Positions 6,020-32,426 of a stretch of 64,000 bases of DNA are shown piece after piece (the first letter of the stretch is position 1; each line of letters begins with the position of its first letter). The translations under genes and the position numbers were made by a program. The stretch is taken from assembly GCA_019752815.1 (NCBI GenBank), contig JAIELQ010000006.1, positions 1,577 to 65,576 of the forward strand. Direction: 5' to 3'. This DNA is from Patescibacteria group bacterium. GTDB taxonomy: Bacteria; Patescibacteriota; Minisyncoccia; Phycocordibacterales; UBA918. Below the pieces are notes generated by a model. That model made no database searches and was not told the origin of the DNA. It saw only the letters and a program-made list of their open reading frames with translations.

Positions 6020-6721
6020 ATGTTAGAAAATCCCCTAAGTACAACCCCAGTTGTCCCTCAGTGTGTGGGATTTATTATGGATGGTAATCGCAGGTGGGCA
6101 AAAGAACAAAATTTCGCAACTCTTGATGGACATAAGGCAGGTGAGAGTATTTTTTACGATTCAGCCCAATGGGTTAAGGAATTATGTATTCCACACGCTG
6201 TGTATTATGCATTTTCTACTGAGAATTGGCAGCGTAACCCAGCAGAAGTCAGTTACTTGATGCAGTTATTTGAATTATTTCTTGAGCGTATGCTTGGTGA
6301 GATTACTGAAGTGCAGGTTCGGGTGAAGGTGGTTGGTGCACGTGCAGACTTTTCAGTACATCTTCAATCATTGATTGAACGTTTGGAGACAGTAAGCGAG
6401 CAGTATACTAAAACTACTATTTGGGTAGCGCTCTCGTACGGTGGACGGGCTGATATTGTCTCAGCCTGTAATCAGGCCATAGAAGCAGGAGTACCCGTTA
6501 ATGAAGAAAGTTTTGGTCGATACCTACAAACGAACGGTATGCCGGATCCGGATTTAATTATTCGTACGAGTGGCGAACAGCGCCTATCTAATTTTCTACC
6601 CTGGCAATCTGTCTACAGCGAGCTCTTTTTCACTGATACCTATTGGCCGGCATTTACTAAAGAGGAATTTACGCGTATTGTAGGCCAATATGGAGACAGA
6701 CAAAGGCGTCGAGGCAAATAA
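6020..6721 (+). CDS. uppS: undecaprenyl diphosphate synthase (cis-isoprenyl transferase)
   Basis: GFIMDGNRRWA motif plus the C-terminal RTSGEQRLSNFLPWQ motif. Confidence 0.85.
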   Translation: MLENPLSTTPVVPQCVGFIMDGNRRWAKEQNFATLDGHKAGESIFYDSAQWVKELCIPHAVYYAFSTENWQRNPAEVSYLMQLFELFLERMLGEITEVQVRVKVVGARADFSVHLQSLIERLETVSEQYTKTTIWVALSYGGRADIVSACNQAIEAGVPVNEESFGRYLQTNGMPDPDLIIRTSGEQRLSNFLPWQSVYSELFFTDTYWPAFTKEEFTRIVGQYGDRQRRRGK

Positions 6722-7469
6722 TATAGCAAATCCAATCGTAATCTACGAAGACACAGAGGTCCTGGTGGTTAATAAACCATATGGGATGCTCGTGCATGAG
6801 GATTGGCAAAAGAGTGATACCCCAACATTGGTAGAGTGGTTTTTAGCGCGCGTGCCAACTGCCCAGGGTGTAGGGGAAGCAACGGCAACTCCTGATGGAA
6901 AGCCGCTTGAACGATCAGGCGTGGTACATCGCCTGGATCGAGAAACTTCGGGGGTAATTATCTTAGCTAAAACGCCTGAAGCACACGCACACTTAAAAGC
7001 ACAATTTCATGACCGTTTAGTTAATAAAGAGTATCGGGCGTTTGTGTACGGTCGTATGCATGAACGATGGGGTAGTATCGATCGACCGATTGGTCGGAGT
7101 AATAAAGATTTTAGATTGCGCTCTGCCCAACGGGGTGCCAGAGGTACATTGCGCCAAGCCTTAACTGAATGGGAGCGGATAGCTACTGGTGAGTACGAAG
7201 GACAAAATTTTTCGTATTTAAAACTTAATCCTAAAACCGGCCGTACCCACCAGCTGCGGGTACACCTAAAAGCTAATGATCGGCCCATTGTCCAAGATGT
7301 GCTCTATTCAGGAAAATTACGCCACCAATCAAACAATTTAGGACTCACTCGGTTGGCACTCCATGCCCATATACTGGAAATCGTATTACCAAACGGTAGC
7401 AAAGAGCGTTTTATCGCCCCAGTACCTCATGAATTTGAGTTAGCTGCTGAGAGAATCTCAGAAGTCTAG
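6690..7469 (+). CDS. RluA-family pseudouridine synthase
   Basis: HRLDRETSGVIILAKT catalytic Asp motif; C-terminal HQLRVH. Confidence 0.7.
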   Translation: METDKGVEANNIANPIVIYEDTEVLVVNKPYGMLVHEDWQKSDTPTLVEWFLARVPTAQGVGEATATPDGKPLERSGVVHRLDRETSGVIILAKTPEAHAHLKAQFHDRLVNKEYRAFVYGRMHERWGSIDRPIGRSNKDFRLRSAQRGARGTLRQALTEWERIATGEYEGQNFSYLKLNPKTGRTHQLRVHLKANDRPIVQDVLYSGKLRHQSNNLGLTRLALHAHILEIVLPNGSKERFIAPVPHEFELAAERISEV

Positions 7470-24353: not shown

Positions 24354-24427
24354 TGGGCGGCTAGAGAGAATCGAACTCTCGATACCGGTTCCACAAACCG
24401 GAGTTTTACCACTAAACTATAGCCGCC
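24354..24427 (-). tRNA. tRNA-His(GTG) with G-1
   Basis: Reverse complement GGCGGCTATAGTTTAGTGGTAAAACTCCGGTTTGTGGAACCGGTATCGAGAGTTCGATTCTCTCTAGCCGCCC. Anticodon loop TTGTGGA. Confidence 0.8.
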
Positions 24428-24568: not shown

Positions 24569-25786
24569 TTGTGGGGTTGTTTTTTATCTTTATGTTGGGG
24601 GCGGGAATTGGGTTTTATATTGCTAAAATGGTCTACTAGAGTTGGGTATATGACAACTCTTTTAGTCCGTAGTTTTTTTCTCCTCCTGTGTATATTAGTG
24701 CCAGCCGGATTGCAGGCTCAAGAAGTACATCAAGAACTGCAAGAAACCGTTAAGGCTAAGGTACTCGAAATTGTTGAACAGTCTGATCGGCAAATCATGG
24801 GGACTGATGCTACAACGACGGTGCAGACGCTGCGAATAGAGTTGCTGGCGGGCGAGAAGGTAGGACAGGTGATGTCGCTTGATAACGACATTATGGTCCT
24901 TGAGGTCGGTGATGTCATTTTTGTAAACCGATTAGTGGCGATTGATGATACGGAGTACCTGACATTCAAAGATATTGAGCGGCGACCACAGCTGTTTTGG
25001 ATGGCCTTGCTTATGGTTGCGCTGGTAATTGGATTTTCAGGCTGGCAGGGGATGCGAGCACTTATTAGTTTAGGATTGAGCATTTTCGCCATTATATTTT
25101 TACTCGTACCGGCGTTGCTCGCAGGGTATGAGCCGGCCCTCGTTAGTTTAGTCATTGCCGGTGTGATATTAGCCTCGTCACTCTTTTTGACACATGGTTT
25201 TAAACCCCGGGTGACGATTGCGTTTATCGGAACATTTAGTGCGGTCGGGGTAACGTGTTTGCTCGCGTGGTTATCGGTTGACTGGTTGCGTCTAACGGGG
25301 TTTGGGTCTGATGCGTCGGTGTATTTGAATTTCTCAACTGGTGGGACCCTCGATATCGCTGGGCTACTGCTCGGGAGTATTATCATCGGACTCCTTGGGG
25401 TGCTCGACGATGTATCGATTACCCAAGCGTCAGTCGTTCAAGAACTCAGGCGAGCCAATCTAGAATTGTCACCGTTTGAATTGTATAAGCGAGCAATTAA
25501 CGTTGGGCGGGACCATGTGGGGTCACTCGTAAATACTTTGGCGCTCGCGTACCTCGGTACCGCCTTGCCCCTCGTGATGTTTTATTCCCGGGCAAACGCT
25601 GATTTCTGGCAATCAGTTAATCAAGAAGTAATCGCGGCCGAAATATTACGTATTATCATCGGTAGTATTGGTCTTATATTAGCGGTTCCGTTCACAACAG
25701 CTGTGGCAGCTTGGTATTTTGGAAACAGGGAAGTGAGTGTTGATCACGACCATGAGCACGGTCATCACCACCATCATTCACATTAA
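24569..25786 (+). CDS. YibE/F-like polytopic membrane protein with extracytoplasmic N-domain and His-rich C-terminus (true start probably at the MTTLLV signal peptide near 24647)
   Basis: Signal peptide, then a roughly 100-aa soluble domain, then 6-7 TM helices; C-terminus HDHEHGHHHHHSH. Confidence 0.45.
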   Translation: MWGCFLSLCWGRELGFILLKWSTRVGYMTTLLVRSFFLLLCILVPAGLQAQEVHQELQETVKAKVLEIVEQSDRQIMGTDATTTVQTLRIELLAGEKVGQVMSLDNDIMVLEVGDVIFVNRLVAIDDTEYLTFKDIERRPQLFWMALLMVALVIGFSGWQGMRALISLGLSIFAIIFLLVPALLAGYEPALVSLVIAGVILASSLFLTHGFKPRVTIAFIGTFSAVGVTCLLAWLSVDWLRLTGFGSDASVYLNFSTGGTLDIAGLLLGSIIIGLLGVLDDVSITQASVVQELRRANLELSPFELYKRAINVGRDHVGSLVNTLALAYLGTALPLVMFYSRANADFWQSVNQEVIAAEILRIIIGSIGLILAVPFTTAVAAWYFGNREVSVDHDHEHGHHHHHSH

Positions 25787-25821
25787 TTTGGTATACTAGA
25801 AGCATTTAATCAACGTAATTA

Positions 25822-26211
25822 TTGTATATGAAAGATTTTATCGAGGAATTCAAAGCGTTTGCAATGAAGGGAAATGTTATTGATTTAGCGGTAGCGGTGG
25901 TAATTGGAGCTGCATTTGGAAAAATTGTAGCGTCTTTAGTAGAAAACATTATTATGCCTGCTATTGGGATTATCCTCGGTGGGGTTGATTTTACAACCTG
26001 GTCACTTTCGGTCGGGGACGCAGAGATTACCTACGGAGTATTTATTCAAAGCGTCTTTGACTTTACGATTATTGCCTTTGTGATATTCCTCGTCGTGCGT
26101 GCCCTGTCACGATTTAAAAAGAAAGAATCTATTACACCGACTGTTACTCCGGAACCATCAGACGAGGTTAAGTTACTGATGGAAATCCGCGATAGTTTGC
26201 GGCGGGATTAA
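25822..26211 (+). CDS. mscL: large-conductance mechanosensitive channel MscL
   Basis: FKAFAMKGNVIDLAVAVVIGAAFGKIVASLVENIIMPAIG is the MscL TM1 signature; 129 aa. Confidence 0.85.
   Translation: MYMKDFIEEFKAFAMKGNVIDLAVAVVIGAAFGKIVASLVENIIMPAIGIILGGVDFTTWSLSVGDAEITYGVFIQSVFDFTIIAFVIFLVVRALSRFKKKESITPTVTPEPSDEVKLLMEIRDSLRRD
26173..26200 (+). repeat. 28-bp direct repeat (left copy) bracketing the DGR cassette; lies in the mscL 3' coding end
   Basis: TTACTGATGGAAATCCGCGATAGTTTGC, identical to 28921-28948. Confidence 0.8.
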
Positions 26212-26279
26212 ACATTAAATTGATTAGGAATAGGGTGTATTCACAAGCTATTGAACCATTACGGCACCCTTGCTTTTTC

Positions 26280-26299
26280 TTGAAAAACATGCTATAATA
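26280..26299 (+). promoter_or_regulatory. sigma70-like promoter for the DGR target gene
   Basis: TTGAAA - 17 nt - TATAAT. It is followed by a 5'-UTR 14-bp inverted repeat TTCGCCACAACTTG...CAAGTTGTGGCGAA at 26323-26377. Confidence 0.5.
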
Positions 26300-26422
26300 C
26301 CAGCATTGTTCTTTAGTATTTATTCGCCACAACTTGTTTCAAATAAAATTTTTAATTTGTAGCAAGTTGTGGCGAAGTCCATAAGGATTAGTTGTACAAC
26401 ATACAGAAAGTAGAGGCTTCCG

Positions 26423-27073
26423 ATGAGAACCATCGCTTCCCTCGTAGACACGGCGACCCAAATGGGTCAGACGGCAAAATGGCTACGTTTGCTTGCGGAG
26501 CTGGGTGTAACTCCTCAGCATCTCCAGCGAGCTATCGACAGCAAGTCCGCCCGCACCAATTTGGCGGAATTCTTGCAGGCCGATTGCCCGAAAATCAACT
26601 GGACCGACCCGAATGAGCCGAAAGCCAAACGGGTGAAGAAAGGCGCACAAACTTTCGACGAAGTCGCCTACTTCCAAACCCGTACGGGTCTCTGGGTTGA
26701 TGGTGATCTCGGTCGCTATGTGGGACTGAAAGTCCGTCCCTCTCGCTCGCACCTGGCGTTGAAACGCCGAGTGCTGTCGAAAAACGAGAGCGAAGCGACG
26801 ATGTTCGGTAAGTCTGGTTCCAATCAGTATGCTGAAACCTGCACGAACGCTGTCGATCTTGGTCAGATTGCTTGCAAGATTGACAGGCAATGGAATGGGG
26901 AGGAAGGTGAACTGTTGACTGACGGCAGTGCGAATATTTTCCCGGTCATCGGTCTTGATAGTGCGCTCCGCGTCGTGCGCGTCTATCGGCACGGTGGCGA
27001 GTGGTTCGTGCGCTGCGACCCGTTCAACCCCGACGACGTCTGGAGCACTGGCGACCAGGTGTTCCGCAACTAG
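26423..27073 (+). CDS. DGR target (variable) protein; C-terminal variable repeat
   Basis: 216 aa with markedly higher GC than its surroundings. The last 37 codons form the VR, matching the TR except at TR adenines (VR ALRVVRVYRHGGEWFVRCDPFNPDDVWSTGDQVFRN versus TR-encoded ALRVVNVNRNDGKWNVNCNPFNPDNVWNTGNQVFRN). Confidence 0.75.
   Translation: MRTIASLVDTATQMGQTAKWLRLLAELGVTPQHLQRAIDSKSARTNLAEFLQADCPKINWTDPNEPKAKRVKKGAQTFDEVAYFQTRTGLWVDGDLGRYVGLKVRPSRSHLALKRRVLSKNESEATMFGKSGSNQYAETCTNAVDLGQIACKIDRQWNGEEGELLTDGSANIFPVIGLDSALRVVRVYRHGGEWFVRCDPFNPDDVWSTGDQVFRN
26961..27071 (+). repeat. DGR variable repeat (VR), 111 nt
   Basis: 97 of 111 nt identical to the TR; all 14 mismatches fall at TR adenine positions. 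Confidence 0.85.
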
Positions 27074-27425
27074 TCTTTGGGAACTTAGACCTAAAAAAGT
27101 CCTTAGCACTTCATCCTTAGTACTTTGTCCTTGTGACATTGTGCTAGGGGTGGAGGCTATTTTTGTATATACTTCCATACTATAATATATTGGCGTTTGT
27201 ACTGAGAGTCCGACTACGGTTTTACTCCATAACGTAAGTAACTGTCGACGCCAGAATAGCAGTGATCACGGTTTCTGCTAGTGTGCCCAGCATTACTTTT
27301 TAAAAAATATAATTAGTTGGTGAGATAGACTGGGCAATTATGATTGCGAATAAAATTCAACCCCCAGAGTATGTCAAAATTTCAAAGGGTGGTGGTAAGG
27401 ATGGTCTATCTCTCATATGTACCTG

Positions 27426-27536
27426 GTGCGCTCCGCGTCGTGAACGTCAATCGGAACGATGGCAAGTGGAACGTGAACTGCAACCCGTTCAACCCCGACA
27501 ACGTCTGGAACACTGGCAACCAGGTGTTCCGCAACT
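27426..27536 (+). repeat. DGR template repeat (TR), 111 nt
   Basis: In the VR-equivalent reading frame the TR carries 8 AAC plus AAT, GAT and AAG at the positions that differ in the VR. A possible TATAAT lies upstream at about 27309. Confidence 0.85.
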
Positions 27537-27554
27537 CATATCATTTCTCCCTTA

Positions 27555-27907
27555 CTTTTCGGTGAGGGAGTTTTGTTTCTCGACTTGCCCAAGCCATCCG
27601 CCCAGCATTCGGCCGGTTTCATCAAGCGGCAAGGAAAGCAATTCGTATTTTTGCGTATCAATGGAACGAGTTTCCCAGAGAATGTTAAGGAGAATTTTTA
27701 TTGTATCAAGTTTACGGATAGCAGTCCGCAAATAAATAATTTTGTCAGCTTTTTTACAAAACTGGCACTTGCCACCATCTCGATTATCTCAATAAACAGG
27801 GTATCGATTTTGGGTGCGAGAGTATAGCGATGCGGTTTTTGGATGGTATGAAAAATACTGTACCAAAAAATGTACACCGTACGGATTTTTTGGATTACCG
27901 GCACCAA
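27555..27907 (-). pseudogene. accessory variability determinant (Avd)-like four-helix-bundle gene, apparently frameshifted at a T6/A6 run (about 27750-27755)
   Basis: C-terminal frame translates ...ADKIIYLRTAIRKLDTIKILLNILWETRSIDTQKYELLSLPLDETGRMLGGWLGQVEKQNSLTEK, which resembles the PF05635/Avd C-terminal helices (FLriAkGSlnELetqL...eeigkmLngLiksl). The N-terminal portion is open in a different frame (27698-27907). Total span is about 117 codons. Confidence 0.35.
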
Positions 27908-27951
27908 ACTTGCTTGGAACCTTGCGGGGGGGGGTAGACTTAGGGGGAATC

Positions 27952-28965
27952 ATGAAAAAAGCTAAAAAATTGTTTGCAGGTAGTTTTGATAGTATCACAA
28001 CTATGGAAAATATTTTGATAGCCTGGCGAGCCTTCAAACGCGGTAAAACTAAAAAGTTAGACGTACAGGAATTTGAGCGAAATCTAATAGTGAATCTCCT
28101 TTCGCTCCACACAGATTTACAAAATGGTACTTACCGTCACGGTGGTTACCAGGCATTTAAAATTAATGACCCAAAACCACGTGACATTCATAAGGCGTTG
28201 GTGCGTGACCGAGTAGTACATCATCTATTGTATCTTAGTCTCGCACCATTTTTCTTTCAAATTTTTGTCACCGATTCTTATTCGTGTCAGCTAGGCAAGG
28301 GCACACATAAGGCTCTTAACAGGTTTAGGGAATTTTCAAATATCGTGGCAAAAAATAATACCAAACCATGTTTTGTTTTGAAGTGTGATATTAGAAAGTT
28401 TTTTGCCAGTATAGACCATGAGATATTACAGAGTATTTTGGAAATGAGACTTAATGATAAGCGCTTATTAGCTCTCATACGAGTGGTGGTAGAAAGTTTT
28501 AATAGTGGTGTGGAAGGGAAGGGTTTACCGTTGGGCAACCTAACTTCACAGTTACTGGTTAATATCTACATGCACGAGTTTGATATGTATATAAAACAAA
28601 CGCTTAAAATACCCTATTACATTCGGTACGCTGATGATTTTGTAATTTTTTCGGCAGATAAAGACGAGCTCCTAAAAACACTATCATATATGATAGTGTT
28701 TTTAGGAGATACATTGCGTCTCACAATGCATCCAGATAAAGTAGCTATAAGCATTCTTGCTTCAGGAGTTGATTTTCTAGGTTGGGTTCATTTTCCAAAT
28801 CAGCGGGTGTTGCGGACGGTGACCAAAAAGCGGTTATTTAGAAAATTGGCTAGTAGTAACTTTGATCAAACAGTCGTACAGTCATATTTCGGCTTATTAC
28901 AACATGGCGATACTTACAAATTACTGATGGAAATCCGCGATAGTTTGCAGGATAATCATAATTAG
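27952..28965 (+). CDS. DGR reverse transcriptase (start assigned to the in-frame ATG of MKKAKKLFAG, recalled from a hand-translation of the track ORF 27814-28965; an ATG could not be re-verified in the printed sequence at 27952)
   Basis: RT motifs including RYADDFVIF (YxDD), LKCDIRKFFASIDH (motif A region) and QGxxxSP-like GLPLGNLTSQLLVNIYMHEFD. At about 340 aa the size is typical of DGR RTs, and it has no maturase or endonuclease domains. Confidence 0.8.
   Translation: MKKAKKLFAGSFDSITTMENILIAWRAFKRGKTKKLDVQEFERNLIVNLLSLHTDLQNGTYRHGGYQAFKINDPKPRDIHKALVRDRVVHHLLYLSLAPFFFQIFVTDSYSCQLGKGTHKALNRFREFSNIVAKNNTKPCFVLKCDIRKFFASIDHEILQSILEMRLNDKRLLALIRVVVESFNSGVEGKGLPLGNLTSQLLVNIYMHEFDMYIKQTLKIPYYIRYADDFVIFSADKDELLKTLSYMIVFLGDTLRLTMHPDKVAISILASGVDFLGWVHFPNQRVLRTVTKKRLFRKLASSNFDQTVVQSYFGLLQHGDTYKLLMEIRDSLQDNHN
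28921..28948 (+). repeat. 28-bp direct repeat (right copy) at the RT 3' end
   Basis: TTACTGATGGAAATCCGCGATAGTTTGC. The RT C-terminus LLMEIRDSL duplicates the MscL C-terminal LLMEIRDSL. Confidence 0.8.
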
Positions 28966-28987
28966 AAAGACTGGGTAGTTTTCCGGT

Positions 28988-29012
28988 AAAAACGGCGCCG
29001 TCGGCGCCGTTT
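28988..29012 (+). terminator. intrinsic terminator after the DGR RT
   Basis: AAAACGGCGCC-gtc-GGCGCCGTTTT. Confidence 0.7.
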
Positions 29013-29357
29013 TGGTACCTTGTGTGATCAGCTATCAACGGATGCTCTTCCCAAAACCAAAAAAAGTTTTGGAGTACGAAGACCTGATTAGTTATCCCCA
29101 TTCTTTTGCACGGGTGGTATTTGGCCGGCCTTACTTTAAGCCATATCTGCACGCCATAGCCGTTTTTTACATTTGTACTGAAACCGTTTATTATAGTGCT
29201 ATCACCGCGTCTCCACCGCGATGTGTGTCGGAGGTCAGGACACGCAGCGTTACGTTTTAAAAACGTACCTGAGCCCAGTCTCATAAACTGGGCAGTCTTT
29301 ACCTCACCTTGTAGTCGCGCACATGTATTTATTAAAATAGATTGAACACTTAAGTAT

Positions 29358-30671
29358 ATGCAAATTAAAAACATTAAAAAGCGTGATGGATCACTACAGT
29401 CCTTCGATATTGTGAAAATCGAACACGCCATTTTAATGGCCCTAAAAGAAACTGGCGAGGGAAGTGAAGTTGATGCAGAAAAAGTAGCCGAGAAAGTACA
29501 CCAAAACACCGTCTCAATGTGTGTACAGGCTGGTACGGCAGAAGCTTCAGATCCACAGTCACAAAAATGTGTGAACGGGTACCCAACCGTCGAAGAGGTG
29601 CAAGATATCGTCGAAGCGTCGCTCATGGAGCTGGGGTATTTTGAAACTGCCAAAGCGTACATCATTTACCGAAATGAACGCAAAAAAATGCGAGAACCGG
29701 ATATTTTCCGCAAGCGTCCAAACCTCAAGCCGTACGAATACCCGGAATTGTATGAATACGTTGATGCGGTTCGTCACTCGTACTGGGTACACACTGAATT
29801 CAATTTCACGGGGGACGTACAGAACTTTCACGTAAACGTTAATGACGTTGAACGCAGTGCTATCAAAAACACCATGTTGGCGATTGCACAAATTGAAGTA
29901 GCAGTAAAAAGTTTCTGGGGAGACATCTACAAAAAAATGCCAAAAGCCGAGATCGGGGCAGTAGGGGCAACATTTGCTGAATCCGAAGTACGTCACACCG
30001 ATGCGTATTCACACCTATTGGAAATCCTCGGGCTCAATAATGAGTTCACCAAAATCAAAAAGATTCCGGTCATTCAAGAACGAATGAACTATTTGGAACG
30101 AGTAGTGGAACTGTCAAAGACAAATGAAAACAAAGAATATGCCCAAGCGGTAATGTTGTTCTCGTTATTTGTTGAACACGTCTCTCTCTTCTCACAGTTC
30201 TTGATCATGATGTCATTTAACAAACATAAAAATTTGTTCAAGGGTATCAGTAATGCGGTAGAGGCCACTTCAAAAGAAGAAAACCTGCACGGTATGTTTG
30301 GTATTGATGTGATTAACATCATTAAAAAAGAGCACCCAGAATGGTTTGATGCTGAAGCTAAAAACCGTATCCTTACCGCGTGTGAAGAAGCGTTTGCTGC
30401 CGAGAGTAAAGTTATTGATTGGATCTTTGAGGCCGGAGAGCTTGATTTCTTGCCCGCAGCTAACGTGAAGGAGTTTGTAAAGCACCGCTTTAACAACTCA
30501 CTAGCGTCTATTGGAATGGAACGATTGTTTGATGTTAACCCAGTTTTGCTTGAAGAAACTGATTGGTTTGATAATGAAGTTATTGCAACCAAGCACGTTG
30601 ATTTCTTTGATAAACGTTCTATTAACTACAACAAACGATCAGCGAGTGTAACGAGTGAAGATTTGTTCTAA
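29358..30671 (+). CDS. nrdB: ribonucleotide reductase small (beta) subunit with an N-terminal ATP-cone domain
   Basis: Residues 1-90 are ATP-cone-like (IKKRDGSLQSFDIVKIEHAILMA); the remainder is a ferritin-like R2 (SFWGDIYKKMP ... ESEVRHTDAYSHLLE ... FSLFVEHVSLFSQFLIMMSF). Confidence 0.75.
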   Translation: MQIKNIKKRDGSLQSFDIVKIEHAILMALKETGEGSEVDAEKVAEKVHQNTVSMCVQAGTAEASDPQSQKCVNGYPTVEEVQDIVEASLMELGYFETAKAYIIYRNERKKMREPDIFRKRPNLKPYEYPELYEYVDAVRHSYWVHTEFNFTGDVQNFHVNVNDVERSAIKNTMLAIAQIEVAVKSFWGDIYKKMPKAEIGAVGATFAESEVRHTDAYSHLLEILGLNNEFTKIKKIPVIQERMNYLERVVELSKTNENKEYAQAVMLFSLFVEHVSLFSQFLIMMSFNKHKNLFKGISNAVEATSKEENLHGMFGIDVINIIKKEHPEWFDAEAKNRILTACEEAFAAESKVIDWIFEAGELDFLPAANVKEFVKHRFNNSLASIGMERLFDVNPVLLEETDWFDNEVIATKHVDFFDKRSINYNKRSASVTSEDLF

Positions 30672-30728: not shown

Positions 30729-32426
30729 ATGGCTACTCAAAATAAACCATGGGACTGGGTGAACGATAATACACGAGCGTTTATGGCGCGCGGGTATCTG
30801 GTAGAAGGACAGACAACCGAAGAACGGGTGCGGGCCATCGGCGAATTTGCAGAGAACATCCTTGGTCAAAAAGGCTTTGCGGATAAGTTTGAGAAATACA
30901 TGAGTCTTGGATGGATCTCACTCGCCACTCCAGTGTGGGCCAACTTTGGTCTTAAGCGGGGCTTGCCAATTAGTTGCTTCGGTTCGTTTGTGGCTGATGA
31001 CATGGCGAACATTCTCCATACCCAAGGAGAAGTGGGGATGATGAGTAAGTACGGGGGAGGATGTTCAGCCTATTTTGGCGCTTTGCGTGGTCGCGGAAGT
31101 GAAATTACCCAGAACGGCTACTCGTCAGGCCCGGTGCACTTCATGCAGTTGTTTGAAAAAATCTTGGATGTAGTGAGTCAAGGTGCAACCCGTCGCGGTG
31201 TGTTCGCGGCGTACTTGCCGGTTGAGCACCCCGACATTTTAGAGTTTCTCGATATCGGAGCGGAGGGAAATCCTATCCAAAAAATAAATCACGCGGTGAC
31301 GGTAACAGATGCGTGGATGCAGTCCATGATTGATGGTGATGAAGAGAAGCGAAAAATCTGGGCTAAAATCATCCAACGACGTGGCGAAATTGGGTACCCG
31401 TACATCATGTTTATTGATAATGCGAACAACGCCCGCCCGCAGGTATACAAAGATAAAGAACTCCCAATCTATGCCAGTAACGTTTGTAGTGAAATCATGT
31501 TGCCGAGTAACGCAGATTGGTCATTTGTGTGCTGTTTGTCATCAATCAACCTCCTCCACTACGATGAGTGGAAAGATACTGACTTAGTCGAGACAATGAC
31601 GTACTTCCTTGAGGCAGTCATGACTGACTTCATTAATAAACTCGAAGCCATGCGCGACTCAGAATTTGCCGACAAACGGTTGGCCTTTAAGTTTATGGAG
31701 CGACCATACAATTTTGCCAAAGCCAACCGTGCCTTGGGCTTGGGCGTACTCGGATACCACTCACTCTTGCAGAGTAAGGGCCTCGCATTTGAAAGTGGTG
31801 AAGCTGACGCCATCAACAAAGAAGTCTTTAAAATTATTCAAGAACGATCACTTAAAGCATCAGAAGAAATGGCTAAAGAGTTTGGTGAGCCGGAAGTTCT
31901 TAAGGGATATGGCCGACGTCACACCACAACAATGGCGATTGCTCCGACGACTTCATCAGCCTTTATCTTAGGTCAGGTATCACAGGGAATTGAACCAATT
32001 TGGAGTAACTGCTACATCAAAGACGTCGCCAAGATGAAAGTCGTTATCAAAAACCCGATGCTCACAACGTTGCTTGCCGAAAAAGGGAAGGACACTAAGG
32101 ATGTTTGGGATAGTATTCGCGACGCCGATGGTTCAGTCCAGCACTTAGATTTCCTCACTGATGATGAAAAAGCCGTCTTCCGAACATTCGCTGAAATTGA
32201 TCAAACCAAAGTCATTGAACAAGCAGCCGACCGTCAACAGTATATCGACCAAGGCCAGTCACTTAACGTCATGGTGGCACCTGACACGCCAGTTAAAGAC
32301 ATTAACCGTCTCTACCTCCAGGCGTGGAAGCAGGGTTGTAAAGCGCTCTACTACCAACACAGTATGAACGCTGCCCAGCAGCTCACCCGCAAGAAGATTG
32401 CCGAGCGAAATGCTACGAAGGAATAA
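30729..32426 (+). CDS. nrdA: ribonucleoside-diphosphate reductase large (alpha) subunit, short form without ATP-cone
   Basis: 565 aa; class I R1 core (SCFGSFVADDMANI... ; ...CSEIMLPS... ; C-terminal region). No N-terminal cone. Confidence 0.75.
   Translation: MATQNKPWDWVNDNTRAFMARGYLVEGQTTEERVRAIGEFAENILGQKGFADKFEKYMSLGWISLATPVWANFGLKRGLPISCFGSFVADDMANILHTQGEVGMMSKYGGGCSAYFGALRGRGSEITQNGYSSGPVHFMQLFEKILDVVSQGATRRGVFAAYLPVEHPDILEFLDIGAEGNPIQKINHAVTVTDAWMQSMIDGDEEKRKIWAKIIQRRGEIGYPYIMFIDNANNARPQVYKDKELPIYASNVCSEIMLPSNADWSFVCCLSSINLLHYDEWKDTDLVETMTYFLEAVMTDFINKLEAMRDSEFADKRLAFKFMERPYNFAKANRALGLGVLGYHSLLQSKGLAFESGEADAINKEVFKIIQERSLKASEEMAKEFGEPEVLKGYGRRHTTTMAIAPTTSSAFILGQVSQGIEPIWSNCYIKDVAKMKVVIKNPMLTTLLAEKGKDTKDVWDSIRDADGSVQHLDFLTDDEKAVFRTFAEIDQTKVIEQAADRQQYIDQGQSLNVMVAPDTPVKDINRLYLQAWKQGCKALYYQHSMNAAQQLTRKKIAERNATKE

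Follow-up and report, generated by a model that had tools for sequence, protein, structure and literature searches.

A Patescibacteria diversity-generating retroelement whose reverse transcriptase ends in a duplicated mscL 3' end is probably an old, site-bound cassette

Diversity-generating retroelements (DGRs) of the candidate phyla radiation (CPR) were reportedly the subject of work by Paul et al. in 2017. Here we describe a DGR from a 64,000-nt stretch (called the window throughout) of a 66-kb contig, which carries the NCBI label 'Patescibacteria group bacterium'. The cassette lies between mscL, the gene for the large-conductance mechanosensitive channel, and nrdB and is bracketed by a perfect direct repeat of 28 bp, which encodes the end of MscL on the left and the end of the DGR reverse transcriptase (RT) on the right. 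By itself, the window DGR is an ordinary one of the CPR type. The chromosomal DGRs of Patescibacteria/CPR (DGR clade 2, bioRxiv 10.1101/2020.04.01.020958) share with it the YADD and LGxxxSQ-type RT motifs, adenine-only differences between the template repeat (TR) and the variable repeat (VR), a small target gene with the VR at its 3' end, an Avd gene (interrupted in the window) and the fact that they are encoded by the cell and not by a phage. Frequent transfer of DGRs has been inferred, with no mechanism given (Roux et al., bioRxiv 10.1101/2020.04.01.020958). The window DGR differs from the known CPR DGRs in three respects: its RT ends in the duplicated 3' end of a host gene, the cassette is bracketed by host coding repeats, and avd is located on the opposite strand between TR and RT. 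Among the papers searched, none links DGRs with MscL. The fusion of the RT to an MscL tail, together with the host-derived flanking repeats, is a new structural variant of DGR.

Elements that integrate into the 3' end of a gene and bring a substitute for it are known from e14 and phage 21 in the E. coli gene icd and from islands in tRNA and tmRNA genes. Like these, the present cassette sits in the 3' end of a conserved gene, which is doubled on both sides; the host gene is intact and empty sites are single-copy. The icd/tRNA-type elements, however, code for an integrase of the tyrosine or serine type, and their attachment (att) core is fixed, whereas here there is no recombinase, the block of identity varies and the displaced original 3' end became the coding tail of the element's own RT. 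Direct repeats of the target on both sides of a retroelement also recall the target-site duplications of transposons and of retrotransposons without long terminal repeats. Those of the transposon type are short, fixed in length and found at many sites; here there is one site, the duplication is about 45 nt long and ancient, and no transposase or endonuclease is present. Finally, gene conversion between short dispersed repeats and repeat-mediated deletion are part of general bacterial recombination. The locus resembles repeats in concerted evolution in the patchy identity of older, diverged duplicates, in lineage-specific tracts and in a segment that is absent from relatives. It is unlike the usual repeats of this kind in that the duplicates measure only about 45 nt and are constrained as protein in two different genes, mscL and the RT gene.

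The 28-mer TTACTGATGGAAATCCGCGATAGTTTGC occurs in exactly two copies in the whole window, both on the + strand (26173-26200 and 28921-28948). An earlier note on this DNA, made from the sequence alone, had reported this repeat with its coding content; coordinates and translations were confirmed. The search for further copies that it proposed gave no third match at up to 3 mismatches in the window, and shuffled sequence gave a match in 0 of 100 cases. With one mismatch allowed, the repeat is 31 nt long (26170-26200 and 28918-28948) with a spacing of 2748. The left copy encodes the MscL end ...EVK-LLMEIRDSL-RRD-stop and the right copy the RT end ...HGDTYK-LLMEIRDSL-QDNHN-stop, so that the tails differ directly after the 28-mer. 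The last 15 RT codons (K-LLMEIRDSL-QDNHN, 28918-28962) are derived from mscL. In the following we call the left and right repeat copies X and Y; their full extents are given in Table 1.

The mscL gene is intact. The Pfam match spans the full length of the protein including the C-terminal LLxEIRD helix, and the tail is the same as in relatives that lack a DGR: the window MscL shares 96% identity with its counterpart in empty-site relatives, and both end in RRD-stop. The X 31-mer (26170-26200) matches the native mscL end of the empty relative L176 at every position and deviates by 1-2 nt from those of L184 and L001. Agreement between the window and L001 extends to ...GGGATTAAACAT, with divergence beyond.

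Our comparison covers about ten loci, many of them on short contigs. Empty sites, in which yibE-mscL is directly followed by nrdB-nrdA and the repeat is present in a single copy, occur in L001-L005, L006/L007, L176 and L184. The earlier note had anticipated such sites, and they were found in four mscL lineages, with MscL identities to the window of 96% (P0004, present on 24 contigs from JGI, NCBI and ENA), 95% (P0006), 92% (P0009) and 87% (P0012). The three sampled mscL lineages closest to the window are all empty. In the occupied loci the order yibE-mscL-target-avd(minus)-RT-nrdB-nrdA is found in the five lineages with a readable left flank, except that L177 has no avd, and the synteny, with nrdA (start at 30729 in the window) after nrdB, is the same in every relative whose contig is long enough. 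The individual occupied loci and their RT identities are listed in Table 1.

These comparisons also indicate which copy of the repeat is the original one. What follows Y is collinear with the stretch after mscL at empty sites and with that after the RT gene at other occupied loci: a short spacer, a terminator hairpin with compensatory changes and then the conserved nrdB leader. The distance from the RT stop to the start of nrdB is 392 nt in the window, compared with 400 nt from the mscL stop to nrdB in L001. The sequence after X has homologs at occupied loci only; these comprise a terminator, degenerate in the window, a TATAAT promoter, a hairpin and the leader of the target gene. Because the post-Y sequence is collinear with empty sites while the post-X sequence is shared by occupied loci alone, Y and its terminator represent the original mscL end, and X is the copy that closes mscL today.

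The MscL-derived tail is present across the clade. In L008, L010, L011 and L014 the RT gene ends in a copy of the local mscL 3' end, which starts with the K-L-L codons and includes the stop codon; in L008 the duplication goes a few bases past the stop. It spans about 42-50 nt in each relative in which both copies are readable. Two further loci with only the RT end, L179 and L186, have the same tail, and L177 retains a degenerate relic. The six next-closest RT homologs among the best 120 of 8,000 matches (P0122-P0127, 71-87% identity) carry MscL-like tails such as LLTEIRDSLRRN, LVTEIRDSLRHHHN and LLTKIRDNLRR. P0138 (69% RT identity) has only a degenerate MscL-like tail. The nearest tail-less RT among the matches listed is P0129 (70%), which ends, like more distant RTs, in ...HGN(T/A)xKLxxxI...; its gene is located beside DUF5715 and EF-G genes with no mscL. 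Every sampled RT with an MscL tail whose site could be seen occupies the slot between mscL and nrdB.

Several features date the duplication. The two copies in L014 show 8 nucleotide differences, every one of them synonymous, and both encode KLLTEIRDSLRRN followed by a stop codon. Y of L011 has a 1-nt deletion, which causes a frameshift that extends the open reading frame (ORF), and Y of L186 contains a nonsense codon (CGA to TGA). The synonymous divergence in L014 and the damage to Y in L011 and L186 show that the duplication is old. The pattern LLxEIRDSL of the RT tail is kept with 0-2 substitutions in 7 of 8 lineages, which suggests that the tail is under constraint at the protein level. The residues K-L at the join are common to the consensus of DGR RTs (...HGNxYKL...) and to MscL (...EVKLL...). 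This match of protein consensus sequences suggests that the original fusion of the RT gene with mscL took place at a K-L microhomology.

Next we consider how the cassette has moved between lineages. Synonymous divergence of the flanking genes is high: the number of synonymous substitutions per site (dS) between the window and L001 is about 1-1.7, and the proportion of synonymous differences (pS) between the window and its DGR-bearing relatives is 0.68-0.84, i.e. near saturation. For the RT gene, pS is 0.46-0.53 between the window and L008, L011 and L179. In a sliding window the nucleotide identity to L008 is 92-95% across the 5' parts of avd and RT, compared with 58-80% in mscL. The identity to L179 is 90-96% from the end of the target gene to the TR, while nrdB is only 74% identical at the nucleotide level and saturated at synonymous sites. 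L008 and L010 are 100% identical from the RT start through nrdB and beyond, and only 60-85% identical leftward in yibE, mscL and the target gene; a clear breakpoint of recombination lies near the avd/RT boundary, at about 5700-5930 of L008. The target proteins vary in a similar way. The target of the window is 75% identical to the partial target of L179, 26% identical to that of L177 and 31-38% (tblastn) or 33-42% (local alignment) identical to those of L008, L010, L011 and L014. The fact that divergence is lower in some segments of the cassette than in the genes on either side means that the cassette was not simply inherited vertically, and here the earlier note was right. The breakpoints fall inside the cassette, which indicates homologous recombination and not movement of a unit. 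On these alignments, the cassette modules have been swapped between lineages via the conserved flanks and conserved internal segments.

The extent of X/Y identity differs from genome to genome. The perfect run in the window comprises 28 nt from repeat codon 2 to TTTGC. That of L008 is 29 nt long and shifted toward the stop codon, with 1 mismatch and 1 indel over 41 nt, and the runs in L010, L011 and L014 do not exceed 11 nt (28, 29, 11, 11 and 10 nt in the five genomes overall). L008 and L010 have the same Y, and at the five synonymous positions where their X copies differ within the common coding part only the X of L008 matches Y. Given the X/Y divergence of the other genomes, the probability of finding at most one mismatch in 31 nt is about 0.01. 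The mean X/Y distance per 31 nt is 4.8 within genomes and 6.2-6.7 between genomes. Since the former is only slightly below the latter, any concerted evolution is episodic and not continuous. Since the boundaries of the identity block vary by genome, there is no fixed att core or target-site duplication. Patchy, genome-specific tracts in an older duplication are the mark of gene conversion or a crossover patch, and do not fit an att core or a target-site duplication. The 28-nt identity in the window is thus most likely a locally homogenized patch, produced by conversion, and no fresh scar of an insertion. The direction of conversion is likely from X to Y because the empty relative L176 has exactly the X 31-mer at its native mscL end.

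Together, these results make it probable that the window contains an old, site-bound DGR cassette, whose history combines an ancestral duplication of the mscL end, exchange of modules and episodic conversion between X and Y. In an ancestor of the clade a DGR would have been joined to the 3' end of mscL, whereby the last ~14 mscL codons and the stop were doubled. X would then finish mscL and lead into cassette-specific sequence, while Y would keep the original mscL terminator and the nrdB leader. Y would have turned into the C-terminal tail of the RT, with the join at the shared K-L residues. Later the cassette would have stayed in the mscL/nrdB slot, where its modules were exchanged by homologous recombination and where it decayed or became absent in some lineages. 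X and Y would drift, mostly synonymously, and short tracts of gene conversion would at times re-homogenize them; the perfect 28 nt of the window would be a tract of this kind or the patch of a crossover. If X and Y were to recombine within the 28-mer, exactly 2,748 bp would be lost, and what remained would be an intact mscL of 129 aa that ends in LLMEIRDSLQDNHN and a stop codon and is followed by its own terminator. The empty sites have the architecture expected from such a recombination, and scarless loss of the cassette through its repeats is plausible.

Some observations weigh against this history. The single ancestral capture at K-L is drawn from a protein consensus and not from an observed event. 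The tail type of X and Y is the same within each of L008, L010, L011 and L014, which also fits a repeated local duplication with each insertion. Later gene conversion would leave the same picture as a crossover at the end of the 28-mer at the time of acquisition. The X and Y tails of the window differ (RRD-stop and QDNHN-stop), and the origin of the Y tail is ambiguous; in alignments of QDNHN-stop, the RRD-type and the RHHHN-type each give p ~0.03-0.05. The sample consists of few loci, and scans of two large collections gave no close relatives among the matches listed: an MscL scan of genome contigs listed only distant MscLs from other phyla, and an RT scan of metagenome contigs only RTs of at most 59% identity. 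No donor RT above 87% identity is found among the matches listed, and the three nearest mscL relatives are empty, so that the subclade of the window may have gained or lost the cassette.

Two candidate arguments on the tails were considered and set aside. The identity of tail type within a genome was rejected as decisive proof of independent duplications; there are two common tail types, and indels of His codons switch them often. As the source of the Y tail, an RRD-stop/QRD-stop tail with two small deletions and an RHHHN-type tail received equal marginal scores, and neither was chosen.

The empty sites, which look exactly like products of X/Y recombination, are also what one would expect if the cassette were mobile without a recombinase. 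Under this explanation, recombination between X and Y frees a 2.7-kb circle with one repeat copy, in which the X tail completes the RT ORF. Once another cell has taken up the circle, one crossover at the highly conserved mscL 3' end of that cell re-integrates it; the duplication is thereby restored, and the recipient contributes the Y tail and the terminator. This would account for a less diverged cassette in the same slot of lineages with saturated flanks. It would also account for the Y tail and the following terminator, which are host-like and variable among close RTs (QDNHN, RHHHN, R-stop(RRN), RR), and for the core GAAATCCGCGAYAGTTT, which is conserved at the nucleotide level across lineages. 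However, the breakpoints of exchange lie inside the cassette and not at X or Y. The model predicts an X tail of the donor type, yet the X tail of the window is that of the empty relative L001. A homology of 28-45 nt is marginal for RecA-dependent integration, X and Y of L014 have diverged in place, and no circle or junction was observed. We therefore regard mobility of this kind as unlikely. A related proposal, in which the duplicated mscL end serves both as a means of transport (a promoter-bearing, homology-addressed circle) and as a functional RT helix under purifying selection, is equally doubtful. The C-terminal helix of MscL forms a five-helix bundle; by analogy, the captured helix might promote oligomerization of the RT.

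It is somewhat less likely still that a DGR mobile as a unit was inserted recently, through a site-specific recombinase or an event resembling retrotransposition. The earlier note had suggested such mobility; on this reading the 28-mer is an att core or target-site duplication. A perfect direct repeat does lie exactly at the borders of the cassette, the closest relatives have empty sites, and X and Y are both near-identical to the native mscL end of the subclade. The ORFs of the cassette, however, contain no integrase, transposase or endonuclease domain, the duplication in relatives is ancient and measures 42-50 nt and not 28, and the boundaries of the identity block differ by genome. With a dS of ~1 in the flanks of the closest empty relative, 'recent' cannot be shown. 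There are no copies at other sites in the window or in viral contigs; in the latter neither the 28-mer nor a degenerate pattern of the RT/MscL junction was found. Only parts of the cassette were exchanged. Among the sampled relatives the MscL-tailed RTs occur at the mscL/nrdB slot only, which does not support a transposon with a target-site duplication. Of the features of a site-specific integrative element, the empty single-copy sites are present; a recombinase and a core with fixed boundaries are both missing. What stands of the original proposal is an insertion relative to the relatives, a duplication of the mscL 3' end and a descent that is not simply vertical; the 28-bp unit, the recent event in the window genome and the movement as a unit do not. 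An assembly artifact, in which the shared 28-mer led the assembler of a metagenome to draw a separate element into the end of mscL, is highly improbable. The contig does belong to a metagenome-assembled genome, and the exact RT and MscL sequences of the window are each known from one contig. Independent ENA, JGI and NCBI assemblies of related organisms, however, share the architecture, and their X and Y copies are too diverged for an assembly graph to merge them; the contexts of leader and terminator also run on as in the relatives.

Table 1. Features of the mscL/nrdB locus in the window, and related loci that carry the cassette or parts of it.
Feature	Position	Strand	Description
mscL	25828-26211	+	intact, 127 aa, ends in LLMEIRDSLRRD and stop; Pfam PF01741 MscL 1.5e-41, profile positions 1-122 of 123
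Repeat copy X	26170-26215	+	last 14 mscL codons, stop codon and 4 nt; 28-mer 26173-26200
Cassette left end	26216-26422	+	degenerate terminator, promoter-like TTGCTT 26270-26275, 17-nt spacer, TATAAT 26293-26298, hairpin 26323-26376, target leader
DGR target gene	26423-27073	+	216 aa, 56% GC, no Pfam match; VR 26961-27071
TR	27426-27536	+	111-nt repeat, 87% identical to VR
avd	27552-27907	-	broken by 1-nt deletion between 27749 and 27748
DGR RT	27952-28965	+	337 aa; Pfam RVT_1 2e-21; YADD, LGNLTSQ in translation
Repeat copy Y	28918-28965	+	28-mer 28921-28948, then divergent tail CAGGATAATCATAATTAG (QDNHN-stop)
Terminator hairpin	28989-29013	+	AAAACGGCGCC-GTC-GGCGCCGTTTT; originally the terminator of mscL, by position and structure match to relatives
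nrdB	29358-30671	+	with ATP-cone domain (Pfam); right conserved flank
Occupied: L008/L009 and L010			RT 86% identical to window RT
Occupied: L011-L013			RT 84%
Occupied: L014			RT 71%
Occupied: L177			RT 69%; avd missing
Partial contig L179			RT 81%; target-gene end, avd region, RT, nrdB, nrdA
Partial contig L186			RT 87%; little besides RT

The DGR between the 28-mers is complete, with a target gene containing the VR, a TR, avd on the minus strand and the RT gene. The left end of the cassette is homologous in all DGR-bearing relatives and missing at empty sites; the promoter hexamers in it were read straight from the sequence. The leader of the target gene (26323-26420) is conserved, has no match in Rfam and contains a hairpin, TTCGCCACAACTTG...CAAGTTGTGGCGAA, with covariation of the inner stem in L014. 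The hairpin is followed by an invariant GTCCATAAGGATTAGTTGTACAAC, which contains the palindrome GTTGTACAAC. The VR ends 2 nt ahead of the stop codon of the target ORF. All mismatches between TR and VR (14/14) are located at TR adenines; such differences record past mutagenic activity only. The TR itself lies within an open frame of 73 aa (27344-27565) that reads like a VR-type C-terminus (...VVNVNRNDGKWNVNCNPFNPDNVWNTGNQVFRN...). A hairpin with a T-run (27547-27570) follows directly after the TR and at the same time lies at the 3' end of the oppositely oriented avd.

The avd gene gives two Pfam bAvd half-matches in different frames, and the missing base is evident in an alignment with four relatives. 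At this site (27748-27749) the window reads GTAAAAAAG-CTGAC, where the relatives have GTAAAAAAGACTGAC; avd of L179 has another 1-nt gap, and avd of L008 is intact with 136 aa. The break in the window may reflect pseudogenization or an error in sequencing or assembly. A homopolymer of nine G (27926-27934; C9 on the avd strand) lies between the divergent starts of avd and RT and corresponds to C8 in L008. There the 136-aa avd ORF runs through the C8 tract, and its ATG overlaps the ATG of the RT gene in CATG. The difference in length between G9 and C8 shifts the frame of the N-terminal extension of avd, and the tract might act as a switch that is prone to slippage.

The best 120 of 8,000 RT matches at E<=1e-20 are CPR RTs of similar length, mostly with the C-terminal motif SY.G.L.HGN. 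The RT coding sequence of the window contains a perfect 40-nt palindrome (28669-28708; 20+20 nt with no spacer), which changes about 10 residues. It is missing from all six of the RT genes compared, which have at most a weak inverted repeat with longest perfect arms of 3-7 nt. From its sequence it looks like a quasi-palindrome that was made perfect by template switching. Given this palindrome and the 1-nt deletion in avd, the window DGR may be decaying. Apart from RVT_1 and bAvd, Pfam gave no domain in the cassette ORFs, and hence no recombinase, transposase, integrase or endonuclease; the scan covered the ORFs of at least 50 aa within or overlapping 26216-28917 except for one 54-aa ORF on the minus strand (26168-26332).

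The cassette had been described as GC-rich. Its G+C content (GC) is 43.6%, compared with 43.8% for the window; only the target gene and the TR (58%) are GC-rich, the RT gene has 37%, and the cassettes of the relatives show the same profile. With a cassette GC equal to that of the genome, base composition was rejected as a sign of foreign origin.

Some observations concern the surroundings of the cassette and the relatives. The nrdB leader of about 270 nt (29090-29357) is strongly conserved in the compared loci, e.g. ATCACCGCGTCTCCACCGCGATGTGTGTCGGAGG...CTTGTAGTCGCGCACAT, and less so in the more distant L179; this leader may contain an operator or act as a regulatory RNA. No credible Rfam family was detected in 25700-29500, where only sub-threshold miRNA-like matches on hairpins occurred. 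Genes for large serine recombinases are located directly upstream of yibE in L002 (3832-5442) and L014 (142-1389). The corresponding region of the window contains tRNA-His on the minus strand (24355-24426) and no such recombinase gene nearby; this may be a second variable spot adjoining the mscL locus. In L180 a 207-aa gene (6600-7223), a distant relative of the DGR target with a C-terminus that resembles a VR, stands alone between mscL and nrdB. This slot has no TR, avd, RT or Y copy, and another hairpin takes the position of the hairpin in the target leader. The gene looks like an orphaned former DGR target. The ENA contig L186 ends in AGATCGGAAGAGC (1422-1434), which is an Illumina adapter, so that its last bases are not genomic.

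For the question of how cellular DGRs spread between genomes, the mscL/nrdB slot provides a natural series of occupied, decayed, target-only and empty sites. The footprints in this series point to ordinary homologous recombination and gene conversion, and not to a dedicated mobility enzyme. They also carry a caution, since a perfect direct repeat around an element need not mean a fresh target-site duplication. If mobility through a circle should turn out to be true after all, it would represent a recombinase-free, homology-addressed movement of DGRs into related genomes. The RT of this retroelement has swapped its own C-terminus for the final helix of a host membrane channel, which it retains throughout a clade; this makes the locus a small but clear case of the capture of host coding sequence.

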